DNA of 31,903 nt, taken from IMG/VR virus record IMGVR_UViG_648276649_000004. The stretch is one strand, 5' to 3'. This DNA is from a virus (Duplodnaviria; Heunggongvirae; Uroviricota; Caudoviricetes). The notes below the pieces were generated by a model, which saw only the letters and a program-made list of their open reading frames with translations, ran no database searches and was not told where the DNA came from. Positions 28,307 to 30,619 of the stretch are shown here, piece after piece. The position numbers and the translations under genes were made by a program. The number at the start of each line of letters is the position of its first letter. Position 1 is the stretch's first letter.

Positions 28307-28887
28307 TGGCATTCAGAATGAGTGAACAAGCACGGACCATAAAAATTTATAATCTGCTGGCCGGAACTAATGAATTTATTGGTGAAGGTGACGCATATAT
28401 TCCGCCTCATACAGGTCTGCCAGCAAACAGTACCGATATTGCACCACCAGATATTCCGGCAGGCTTCGTGGCTGTTTTCAACAGTGATGAGGCATCGTGG
28501 CATCTCGTTGAAGACCATCGGGGTAAAACGGTTTATGACGTGGCTTCCGGCGACGCGTTATTTATTTCTGAACTCGGTCCGTTACCGGAAAATGTTACCT
28601 GGTTGTCGCCGGGAGGGGAATATCAGAAGTGGAACGGCACAGCCTGGGTGAAGGATACGGAAGCAGAAAAACTGTTCCGGATCCGGGAGGCAGAAGAAAC
28701 AAAAAACAGCCTGATGCAGGTAGCCAGTGAGCATATTGCGCCACTTCAGGATGCTGTAGATCTGGAAATCGCAACGGAGGAAGAAATCTCGTTGCTGGAA
28801 GCCTGGAAGAAGTATCGGGTGTTGCTGAACCGTGTTAATACAACAACTGCACCGGATATTGAATGGCCAGTAGCACCTATAGGGTAA
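28306..28887 (+). CDS. Tail fibre assembly protein (Tfa), 193 aa
   Basis: Start overlaps the tail-fibre stop (ATAATG); sequence features typical of Tfa chaperones of lambdoid and Mu-like phages. Confidence 0.8.
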
Positions 28888-29475
28888 ATTCGTAATGATT
28901 ACCTAAATACGTTATTCTTTTGTTCAAAAAGTGATTTTGCTATAGGTAGGGAGTATGTTCTTGGATTAAGAATAAAAATCGCCATGAAAGAGCTTCATGG
29001 CGAGTACATAAACGTACAAAATATGATGAAAGTAGAGTGGCGTAAGCCACTATATTAAGATATGACAATAGCGAAGAAAAGTAAATAACATTTTATGGGC
29101 GTTTAATTGTCAATTATAAAAACTAGAGTGCCCGATATTGTTTATCTTGCTTTAAAATAATGTACTCAAACCAAATTTTTGAGCTAAAAGCTCAAATAAT
29201 ATAAATGCAATGATAATGTTTAATAAGACAATTAGCTTGCTTTGTATTTTCATTTCGGAATACTGTTAAGTAACTTTGATGACACTAACAATAGATCGGA
29301 ATTTTCTTAGAGTCAATGGTCACTGTTTTTGCTTGCAAAGCAAATGTTTTTGGTGGTTATAAGTTTTCTTAATATAGTCACCTATGCAACTTGTTCCTTG
29401 TGGAGATTAAAGGTTAAAATTTAATGCGAAGATGGAATTATAATATATTTTTTATAATTAATTTAACCTTAACAT

Positions 29476-29573
29476 CGTTGCTGGCGGCATGGAAGAAATA
29501 TCGGGTCTTGCTGATGTCGTGTTGGCACTTCCTTAGTGCGGTTATCGAATGGCCAGCTGTACCTGTGGGGTAA
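29476..29573 (+). repeat. Degenerate duplicate of the tfa 3' end (copy B)
   Basis: cgttgctggcggcatggaagaaatatcgggtcttgctgatgtcgtgttgg...atcgaatggccagctgtacctgtggggtaa aligns with the last roughly 100 nt of tfa (28790-28887), but no longer forms an intact ORF. Confidence 0.6.
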
Positions 29574-30230
29574 AAACTTTATATGGGTGCTATTTTTATA
29601 ATAGCTGGTAAAAACTGGCCGAACTGAAATTCACTGTTGATAAAAAAGATGTGTTTGAGTGTATGTCATTGTTTTCTTAATGGAATCCACTAGAATGCAG
29701 CGAATTTAAGAAGGTGGGTTTTTATTGGAATATAAACTACAATAATGCTCAACTCGTTCGTAGAATTGTTTTTTCTTATTTTTTGGAATGCTAACCATTA
29801 TATGCATTATGGGGGCGATACTTCCTGATAATTTACATGATGCATACATTGAAGCAATAAATTCAATATCATTGTCATCAAAGTTAAAGCTTTCTCCGTC
29901 CATTTCAATTCCTTATGTGTTTGGCACAACTGATGCTGTATCCCATGAGAATTTATGCAAGTTGTTATGTTTGATTTGATATTGCAATGATAATTGTAGC
30001 TAATTGTTTTCAATTGAGTGAAAGTTTATTTCGAGTGATTAAGTCGAAAAAAAAGATTTCTCACGGTTAGTAAGCGTATTAGGTTAGTATTCAGATATGA
30101 ATGGTATTAATGACTAAATTTTCAATCATATATGGATTTTTATGCTGATGAAGATGTTTTATTTGGCGATTCGTCAAGCATCTTCACTTAAGTAATCGTA
30201 TATTTTAAGAGTGCAAAAGAGAAAGGGACA

Positions 30231-30335
30231 ACGTTGCTCGCACTCTGGATTAAATATAGGGTGTTGTTAAACTGCGTTGATACATAATTGTACCGGATAT
30301 TGAGTGGTCTGAAGTCCCAGTCATTAAGTAATCGT
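30231..30335 (+). repeat. Second degenerate tfa 3'-end copy (copy C)
   Basis: acgttgctcgcactctggattaaatatagggtgttgttaaactgcgttgatacataattgtaccggatattgagtgg... has the same motif order as the tfa C-terminus with in-frame stops. Confidence 0.5.
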
Positions 30336-30619
30336 TTCGTGATATGCCGCAGAAACGTTGTATGCAATAACGTTCTGCGGTTGGCTGATGCACTTTCGAG
30401 AGTGTATTGAATAATTTCAATCCGTTATTGTTTTTACGCGTAACACCATGAAAAGACTGCTTATCTGTTGGGGTATTTTTTGGGGCATATATGGGACAGA
30501 AATAGGCCACAGATAGATAGTAAGATCGAACTCAGGATGCTTTTGAAAAAATGTAACTATCTGAAAAAACCTAGAAAGCGCCAAGGAAACCACAGAATGA
30601 GAAAAAACATCTGTGAATT

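Follow-up and report, generated by a model that had tools for sequence, protein, structure and literature searches.

An array of tfa remnants 3' of the tail-fibre genes in a defective lambdoid prophage at the Escherichia coli ydfJ site

Invertible tail-fibre segments are known from phages Mu (the G segment, with gin) and P1 (the C segment, with cin). The P segment of e14 resembles the locus described here in that the tail-fibre operon ends with tfa-family genes and more than one tfa-related sequence is present, but differs from it in the convergent arrangement of stfP-tfaP with tfaE-stfE, in two 26-bp inverted crossover sites and in the adjoining pinE gene. A closer likeness is offered by K-12 DLP12, with the order tfaD-hairpin-ybcY(-)-tfaX(+)-appY-ompT, where tfaX is an annotated tfa 3' fragment: as at our locus, an intact or longer tfa gene comes first, then cargo encoded on the opposite strand, then a tfa 3' end that lacks its 5' part and has the orientation of the first tfa, and lastly further AT-rich cargo; the tfaD stop precedes the same conserved hairpin. 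This type of arrangement is also found in viable phages (2G7b, PhiR26_1 and others). DLP12 differs from our locus in holding one remnant rather than two, in its attachment site (ydfJ here), in its cargo (a methyltransferase, AppY and OmpT, compared to a YncL-like peptide and a 65-aa orphan here) and in the start of detectable homology, which lies near -154 for tfaX and at -103 for the first of our remnants (c2). K-12 Qin, which occupies the same chromosomal site as our prophage, has the right arm tfaQ-pinQ-ydfK-ynfT-hairpin-ydfJ; its cargo comprises an orphan invertase and genes of the cold-shock-like and small-protein kind, and lacks any tfa remnant. The concept of moron, or b-region, cargo in lambdoid phages is said to be due to Juhala, Hendrix and colleagues. 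Recombination of lambda with Qin or Rac inside stf-tfa has been obtained experimentally and is a Red/RecA-dependent, relaxed homologous recombination (PMC3945230). A literature search found no paper on the particular array that we describe below.

We analysed a stretch of 31,903 nucleotides (the window). The region of interest belongs to a defective lambdoid prophage, of which it forms the right arm, inserted at the ydfJ (Qin) site of E. coli. Its features are, from left to right:

27500..28306, plus strand: 3' fragment of stf (side tail fibre), from the ORF list
28306..28887, plus strand: tfa (tfaQ), intact, 193 aa (Pfam Caudo_TAP, E = 2.8e-42; RefSeq name tfaQ)
28789-28887, plus strand: copy c1, the 3' end of the intact tfa (28730-28913 for the end and ~25 nt past the stop)
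28888..29470, no strand assigned: spacer S1, an AT-rich cargo unit found directly 3' of full-length tfa in other phages
28979..29051, minus strand: two conserved hairpins 3' of the 33-aa ORF (terminator scan)
29152..29253, minus strand: unannotated hydrophobic ORF of 33 aa, YncL-like, inside S1
29471..29573, plus strand: copy c2, a 5'-truncated and frameshifted tfa 3' remnant (BLASTN, TBLASTN, PGAP)
29574..30176, no strand assigned: spacer S2, an AT-rich cargo unit found directly 3' of full-length tfa in a prfC-site prophage
29706..29903, minus strand: gene of a 65-aa orphan protein (RefSeq WP_000348576.1)
~30177..30330 (secure core 30213-30330), plus strand: copy c3, a tfa 3' remnant, the oldest in the order proposed below
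30347..30380, plus strand: conserved 12-bp hairpin, CCGCAGAAACGTT...AACGTTCTGCGG, also in DLP12, IMG/VR loci, K-12 Qin and Rac
30620..31903, plus strand: ydfJ (MFS transporter), truncated by the prophage (RefSeq on identical loci; K-12 Qin boundary annotation)

The right end of the prophage is marked by ydfJ, at the 5' end of which Qin integrates (PMC6379469). The stf fragment is 97% identical to K-12 stfR, is labelled by RefSeq as 'phage tail protein, missing N-terminus' at the identical AR_0128 locus and is fused 3' of a truncated terminase large-subunit ORF (26193-27503), which matches Pfam GpA_ATPase and GpA_nuclease. The sole integrase is the prophage tyrosine integrase (781-2016), 27 kb away from the array, and a tRNA scan returned none. 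A Rac-left/Qin-right junction near 23.4-24.6 kb of the window may be a true inversion or an assembly chimera. Comparison with K-12 Qin reveals that tfa (96% identical) and the hairpin with the tail to ydfJ (88% identity over 30347-30700) are common to both, whereas the cargo between them is wholly different and takes the form S1-c2-S2-c3 in the window, with no invertase.

Two further copies of the last ~100-155 nt of tfaQ follow it in the same orientation, and the three copies of the tfa 3' end that an earlier note had reported for this DNA are real and survive formal alignment: BLASTN with stf-tfa against the whole window gave only c2 and c3 as extra matches, each with E = 9e-10 and both on the plus strand, and no extra stf match, whilst TBLASTN with Tfa detected c2 at E = 4e-6 (residues 162-193) and c3 at E = 1e-3 (residues 156-179). 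Relative to c1, c2 (29475-29573) aligns in ungapped blocks of 88% and 81% identity at a start-to-start distance of 686 nt; c3 (30231-30330), which starts 756 nt past the start of c2, forms blocks of 73% and 79% identity; c3 probably reaches upstream to ~30177. The DNA upstream of either remnant is unrelated AT-rich sequence, with c2 adjoining the right end of S1. Both remnants are disrupted. An indel pair (+1/-1) is present in c2, which yet stays open to the same stop codon; the remnant is also frameshifted in the related locus L091 and was annotated by PGAP in strain GF47 as 'tail fiber assembly protein, frameshifted, partial'. In case of c3, an in-frame stop and a frameshift are found. As remnants of the tfaX type, c2 and c3 show homology to the 3' part of tfa without the 5' part and have a broken frame, and each lies downstream of a further tfa in the same orientation, from which cargo separates it. 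The separation of the copies by AT-rich DNA was likewise confirmed, with 27.5-33% GC in the spacers compared to ~50% in tfa; S1 and S2 are mutually unrelated, a repeat search giving just short chance repeats.

The increasing degeneracy of the copies that had been described holds roughly, although part of the difference to c1 is allelic and not decay. Compared to its closest intact allele c3 differs by 25% (its non-coding tail by 10-17%) with a bias of G/C to A/T changes (16 vs 6), and this decay bias is absent from c2 (6 vs 13). The last 30 nt of c3 represent another tfa end type (...EWPAVPVME), as seen in loci L068 and L085, and this end type, GAGTGG(T/C)CTG..GTCCC.GT.AT..AGTAATCGTTT, fits the alleles linked to the hairpin and not c1. 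The DNA 3' of c3 likewise agrees with such hairpin-linked alleles (L057, L068, L075, L085 and DLP12 tfaD). Immediately 3' of the c2 stop, AAAAACTTTATAT agrees with the prfC-site prophage L005. Part of the grading is therefore due to allelic differences or to later exchange. On the interpretation favoured below, c2 and c3 would be functionless and in decay, and c3, as the oldest, would have gone furthest.

Two explanations that treat the copies as a local product or as elements in their own right can be weighed on this evidence. In a local tandem duplication of the tfa end, with AT-rich DNA inserted afterwards between the copies, the regular spacing and the common strand would be accounted for. 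We consider this very unlikely, as c2 and c3 differ in end type and in native downstream sequence, both of which are known behind full-length tfa, S1 bears no relation to S2, and tfa-S2-c3 is known without S1. The copies could also be functional RNA elements or selected regulatory sites, given that the Rfam model IS009 (RF02111, an 'sRNA') matches 28649-28847 inside the tfa coding sequence with 229 bits, above its gathering threshold of 117, and gives weak matches to c3 (40.8 bits, 30098-30289) and c2 (32 bits). However, the IS009 model is itself a 199-nt piece of the tfa coding region, in tfaQ, tfaD and tfaR alike, the scores of c2 and c3 are far under the threshold, and indels and substitutions are spread over the full length of both; we give this explanation hardly any credence.

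The same small chance is all that we attach to a decayed invertible host-range segment, which the earlier note had put forward and in which alternative tfa genes would once have been flipped by a Pin/Gin-type invertase that was later lost. K-12 Qin and Rac do hold pinQ and pinR directly 3' of tfa, in the equivalent position. Against this, the absence of an invertase gene was upheld for the window (TBLASTN with K-12 PinQ against all 31.9 kb, nothing at E <= 10), and a Pfam scan of the 20 large ORFs found no resolvase domain. For gix/hix-like crossover sites, to which the earlier note had also pointed, we used the pattern TTNTCNNAAACCNNGGTTTNNGANAA, which picks out the two e14 sites, each at one mismatch, and gives no chance matches: the window holds 0 pix/gix sites with up to 3 mismatches, and also 0 matches to the e14 half-site pattern. 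An initial crossover-site search had found nothing beside pinQ in K-12 Qin either. There is no inverted copy of tfa or stf, as shown by the lack of any minus-strand self-match in 27400-30700 at E <= 0.1; instead, all copies are direct and comprise the last 100-155 nt only, with no alternative stf 3' exons, and beyond the gene itself tfa matches just two 3' fragments, both on the plus strand. Orientation variants of S1 or S2 were found in none of the related loci, the pinQ-ydfK-ynfT module has no sequence in common with either spacer, and each copy is colinear with a full-length tfa end and its own downstream DNA in phages that likewise have no invertase. For an integron-like cassette array there is no adjacent integrase, and the repeat search found no end motif of S1 and S2 beyond the tfa remnants. 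The tfa remnant array is a feature of an already known and ordinary kind and not what is left of an invertible host-range switch.

Each spacer is a small cargo unit read from the minus strand. S1 was found in 831 of 5426 complete E. coli genomes and lies immediately 3' of tfa in two related loci and in phages ev099, mEp332 and PhiR70_1; L091 holds a 79% homologue. Its 33-aa ORF matches NCBIfam YncL (NF000537) with E = 1.3e-5 and 25 bits, below the curated cutoff of 35, and is 39% identical to K-12 YncL over 28 aa, and is accordingly a distant YncL relative, not an equivalog. The ORF is intact in all 30 S1-bearing loci (30/30), and in the 79% homologue the substitutions fall 7/1/10 by codon position with zero indels. 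Of the two hairpins downstream, the second (29003-28979), followed by TTTTTATTCT, looks like an intrinsic terminator; the window and L091 hardly differ in the hairpin block, while the remaining S1 is ~79% identical.

S2 was found in 591 genomes. Its 65-aa gene has a Shine-Dalgarno sequence (AAGGA) 6 nt 5' of the ATG and is intact in 16 loci, including L005, where start and stop are identical, nucleotide identity is ~79% and substitutions are distributed 12/10/20 without an indel. The protein has no match in Pfam, PHROGs or PADLOC and a sub-threshold one to NCBIfam GlgS (E = 0.026, 14.5 bits, cutoff 105); a search of 5.8 billion proteins gave 13 close relatives, and every source name given is E. 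coli. The suggestion that the minus-strand ORFs 29706-29903 and 29807-30013 represent one frameshifted small gene is therefore refuted, since the former is a complete, conserved gene of its own. In the L005 homologue, at 80% identity, ORF 29807-30013 is interrupted by indels and stop codons. Both small genes are presumably expressed.

S1 and S2 resemble morons in their distinct, AT-rich base composition, in carrying a small gene, in their presence or absence among related phages and in their location between the last tail gene and the attachment site, with the terminator-like hairpin of S1 as a further likeness. A difference from morons may lie in the promoters, as promoter-like matches are not above chance here (5 matches vs 8.4 expected).

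Downstream of near-identical tfa genes, at least 5 alternative arrangements exist, and each part-arrangement of the array occurs on its own in other phages or prophages. In its simplest form tfa leads directly into the hairpin, as in DLP12 tfaD and in 6 IMG/VR loci, L068 and L085 among them, where the hairpin is found at +25 to +131 3' of tfa; in other lambdoid prophages it lies ~17 nt past the tfa stop. It is also found 5' of ydfJ in K-12 Qin and 5' of ttcC in Rac, and in the window c3 continues past its stop codon into it. The full tfa-S2-c3-hairpin is present without S1 in L005, where it aligns colinearly, at 80% identity, with positions 29475-30438 of the window, and L041 has the same arrangement. 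Tfa-S1 alone is followed by unrelated DNA, and BLAST shows no tfa remnant right of S1 in these phages, with short doubtful resemblances only; S1 may hence predate or postdate the S1|c2 joint. The whole block is known at two attachment sites, ydfJ and att-lambda (L009), with a common right limit near 30436, and the shared module right limit lies near 30436-30438. The S1-c2-S2 junction was found in 579 of the 5426 genomes, which are 579 of the 594 with any match to the junction-spanning query, and among the genome matches listed it forms a single colinear piece, IS insertions aside. Order and orientation are constant in all IMG/VR contigs carrying the array (27/27). Several further deletion variants of the locus exist, indicating that these dead prophages repeatedly acquire joints within tfa. 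Exact-pattern scans with a c3 and an S1 pattern, using one genome per species, found nothing in other species.

As each copy has downstream DNA that is found behind a full-length tfa elsewhere, the array reads as a nested record of two module replacements. We favour, with a probability of roughly 0.7, the interpretation that the copies are nested scars of recombination in the stretch of a defective lambdoid prophage that holds cargo from tfa up to the right attachment site. The ancestral phage end would have been tfa, ~17 nt and the conserved hairpin, upon which two successive events would each have imported a tail-fibre module with its own tfa and its own AT-rich cargo, with the join falling within the tfa already present, some 100-155 nt ahead of its stop codon. 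The first event would have joined tfa(c2)-S2 to c3-hairpin, and the second tfa(c1)-S1 to c2. This interpretation is also supported by the disruption of c2 and c3, the like architecture of K-12 DLP12, the presence of the block at two attachment sites, the deletion variants and the experimental recombination of lambda with Qin and Rac. For neither joint did we find a parent in which the partner is still unjoined, and so we infer the order of the events, and joints of an illegitimate or short-homology nature, from nesting and decay only. Apart from the missing decay bias in c2, the allelic part of the grading and the unrelated DNA that follows S1 in the phages with S1 alone, one more observation counts against nested scars: independent remnants (c2, c3, tfaX and the L091 type) have their left limits grouped at -103 to -155, which is unexplained by random joints.

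This clustering counts in favour of a stacking of cassettes through homologous recombination. Here the conserved 3' end of tfa would provide homology that travels with the cargo, and units would be stacked and moved among co-resident lambdoid prophages either by unequal crossing-over between a remnant in one phage and the intact tfa end of another or by Campbell-type insertion of a circle comprising 'tfa end + cargo'. Direct repeats flanking cargo are expected from such events, Red-dependent exchange in tfa is known from experiment (PMC3945230), and the window and L091, related at only 79% elsewhere, are 99% identical over a patch (29355-29540) whose end falls within c2. Nevertheless we regard stacking as unlikely: the order of S1 and S2 is invariant in the genomes and contigs counted above, loss of S1 through recombination between c1 and c2 was never seen, the block that moved between attachment sites has its right limit ~55 nt past the hairpin and not at a remnant, and the phages with S1 alone lack a remnant on its right. 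Efficient RecA recombination needs a minimum of ~25 nt, and the longest exact runs now common to the copies, at 12 nt, are below this. Thus, the idea that the region is a recombination hotspot is borne out historically, in the form of old joints, but not for the present, with the arrangement fixed in the 579 genomes. A crossover inside c2 was also considered from the alignment of the window with L091 and L005 and was rejected: the shared block runs ~50 nt past c2 into S2 and is therefore not evidence of exchange at c2 itself. In a broader form of stacking, the last ~100-150 nt of tfa would be a reusable anchor at which Red/RecA stacks, moves and loses cargo among co-resident lambdoid prophages. 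We hold this to be improbable; if true, the tail-fibre operon would end in an array of cassettes driven by homology, with the clustered left limits as the anchor edge.

The nested-scar interpretation reveals neither a new mechanism nor a new host-range switch, and the main value of the array lies in annotation, where two unannotated stretches can now be assigned as tfa pseudogene remnants. The AT-rich DNA between them is not junk, as it holds the conserved genes of the 33-aa YncL-like membrane peptide and the 65-aa orphan, both of which are also present in viable lambdoid phages. Moreover, the nested array would be a readable record of serial replacement at the tail-fibre/cargo end of lambdoid prophages, and it supplies concrete joints for the study of phage mosaicism.

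A repeat search and an alignment revealed the tfa 3′ end in three direct copies, at 28789-28887 (c1, the end of the intact tfaQ), 29475-29573 (c2) and 30231-30330 (c3). In BLASTN, stf-tfa gave only two extra matches in the whole window, both on the plus strand and each with E = 9e-10, and in TBLASTN the extra copies c2 and c3 reached E = 4e-6 and E = 1e-3; the earlier note's description of three graded copies, coordinates included, is thus correct. c2 carries a +1/-1 indel pair, yet its reading frame is open to the same stop codon (in one genome PGAP labels it a partial, frameshifted tfa), and AT-biased decay is absent from it. 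c3 has one in-frame stop and one frameshift, and is colinear upstream to about 30177 and downstream past the stop codon into a conserved hairpin; its final 30 nt are of the allele type of hairpin-linked tfa genes, not of the c1 type, and part of the grading is allelic. Exact runs shared among the copies are at present only 7-12 nt, and GC content between the copies is 27.5-33%. The hairpin is located as follows:

30347-30380: hairpin CCGCAG..CTGCGG, 3′ of c3

In the K-12 prophage DLP12, the tfaD stop is followed by about 17 nt and then by this hairpin, an arrangement also present in six IMG/VR contigs. L005 is a prophage at prfC in which S2 (the AT-rich spacer between c2 and c3; 80% identical), c3 and the hairpin come directly after a full-length tfa, colinear with window 29475-30438, so that c2 is the severed end of the tfa natively preceding S2. 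S1, the AT-rich spacer between c1 and c2, lies directly 3′ of a full-length tfa in two att-lambda prophages (L004, L006) and three phage isolates (ev099, mEp332, PhiR70_1). L009 carries the whole stack at att-lambda too, its right limit likewise near 30436. Every copy hence retains its own native downstream DNA, and the array therefore reads as a nested history with the newest part leftmost. We consider two past replacement events, with their right-hand joints inside a resident tfa, to be the probable origin (probability about 0.7): the starting state would have been tfa-hairpin, tfa-S2 would next have been joined to c3-hairpin, and last tfa-S1 to c2, an order that we infer from nesting and decay. 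Recombination of lambda with Qin or Rac inside stf-tfa proceeds by Red/RecA-dependent relaxed homologous recombination (PMC3945230), and stf-tfa is therefore a documented exchange zone. No unjoined parents of the two joints were found; the joints may have formed by homologous exchange, as an unequal crossover with a remnant already in place, or illegitimately. Duplication of the tfa end in situ is poorly supported and very improbable.

That the units are exchanged as cassettes through homology is unlikely, although independent remnants have clustered left limits (nt relative to the tfa stop: -103 for c2, about -118 to -155 for c3, about -143 for the L091 type and about -154 for tfaX) and a 99%-identical patch between the window and L091 ends within c2: the S1-S2 order is fixed, the linkage is stable and the transfer boundary lies past the hairpin. 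Among 5426 complete E. coli genomes, S1 is present in 831, S2 in 591 and the S1-c2-S2 junction in 579; order and orientation are identical in all 27 IMG/VR contigs carrying the array, the variants being IS insertions or further deletions into the first tfa, and no loss of S1 through c1 x c2 recombination was seen. In the IMG/VR relatives L091 (2855-3024), L111 and L115 only the last ~143 nt of the first tfa are left, immediately after a different tail-fibre gene; this is a third remnant with its left limit in the -100 to -155 zone of c2, c3 and tfaX.

The earlier note had also read the region as a decayed invertible host-range segment, a reasonable idea since pinQ (Qin) and pinR (Rac) of K-12 lie directly 3′ of tfa. 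As it had stated, there is no invertase gene: the window holds no Pin homologue, and likewise no inverted tfa or stf copy. The proposed search for gix-like crossover sites gave no pix/gix site in the window at up to three mismatches, with a pattern that recovered both e14 sites at one mismatch each. The real switch of e14 has stfP-tfaP facing tfaE-stfE and adjoining pinE, and the window fails every such test; the K-12 pinQ-ydfK-ynfT module has no sequence in common with S1 or S2, and similarity restarts only at the hairpin. A decayed switch is thus hardly credible. Equally poorly supported and remote is the idea that the copies serve as functional RNAs. The Rfam match IS009 (28649-28847) falls wholly within tfa coding sequence, as in K-12 tfaQ, tfaD and tfaR, so this 'sRNA family' may only reflect conserved coding DNA; the window likewise contains RalA, the RalR antitoxin sRNA, and STnc100 (2337-2515, 21946-22132).

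Both spacers carry small reading frames:

29253-29152, minus strand: 33-aa hydrophobic ORF in S1, where RefSeq annotates nothing
29036-29051 and 28979-29003: two nearly invariant hairpins downstream of the 33-aa ORF, the second with a T-run
29903-29706, minus strand: 65-aa ORF in S2, with a good Shine-Dalgarno sequence

The 65-aa ORF is intact in 16 loci. In L005 it is whole, with the same start and stop and no indels (substitutions by codon position 12/10/20), whereas the flanking DNA does contain indels; homologues of the protein occur in E. coli only, and no matching family was found. The overlapping ORF 29807-30013 is wrecked by indels and stops in L005, and the two are therefore not the single frameshifted gene that had been suggested. 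The 33-aa ORF is similar to YncL, a small membrane protein (39% identity to that of K-12; NCBIfam E = 1.3e-5, under the family cutoff), and is intact in 30/30 S1-bearing loci, viable phages included, with substitutions by codon position of 7/1/10 against L091 (S1 79% identical). The S1 and S2 units look like putative small morons, read from the strand opposite tfa. Downstream of S1 in att-lambda prophages, a 3′ tRNA-like fragment (L004 4340-4420; …GGTTCAAATCCCCCTCTCTCCGCCA) precedes an AraC-family regulator and IS remnants, a hint of another integrated element in that cargo bay.

The window consists of E. coli DNA, and 28200-30700 is 100% identical to the tfaQ-to-ydfJ interval of strain AR_0128 and many others, in whose records RefSeq gives tfaQ, a single hypothetical protein of 65 aa and a 5′-truncated ydfJ. 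The array region is the right arm of a prophage at the Qin attachment site, which lies in ydfJ (PMC6379469). Upstream of it are found:

26193-27503: truncated terminase large-subunit ORF (ATPase domain and start of the nuclease domain)
27500-28306: 3′ fragment of the side tail-fibre gene, directly behind the terminase ORF

The terminase ORF runs straight into the stf fragment and every head and tail gene is therefore absent, taken out by a single deletion (window 26193-28306); this prophage is dead. Related loci L105 and L113 have other deletion endpoints. The window itself is a hybrid of a Rac-site prophage adjoining ttcA (1-24567; intR, RalA, recT, recE, sieB) and a Qin-site arm adjoining ydfJ (23442-31903), overlapping in the lysis cassette. 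None of the 5426 genomes covers at least 80% of 20500-27500 in one place, and in K-12 the Rac and Qin prophages lie in opposite orientation; the junction therefore implies a ~200-kb inversion between the two or else a chimeric assembly. Within the prophage, a chromosome-like cargo block (11640-17896) encodes a BCCT (BetT-like) transporter, a DUF2254 membrane protein, a LysR regulator, a ChaC-like protein and an MFS transporter, and two neighbouring ORFs with a TolA C-terminal domain (22243-22671 and 22822-23217) lie immediately upstream of the lysis genes; RefSeq names similar genes in strain EC28 'cell envelope integrity TolA C-terminal domain-containing protein'.

No paper describing this array was found in a literature search. 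The closest described case is tfaD-ybcY-tfaX-appY-ompT of DLP12, in which a same-strand tfa 3′ fragment, annotated as tfaX, follows cargo, an arrangement also present in viable phages such as 2G7b. As a known type of tfa remnant behind cargo, the array would not surprise a specialist; what is new here, compared with the single remnant of DLP12, is the presence of two remnants with different cargo.
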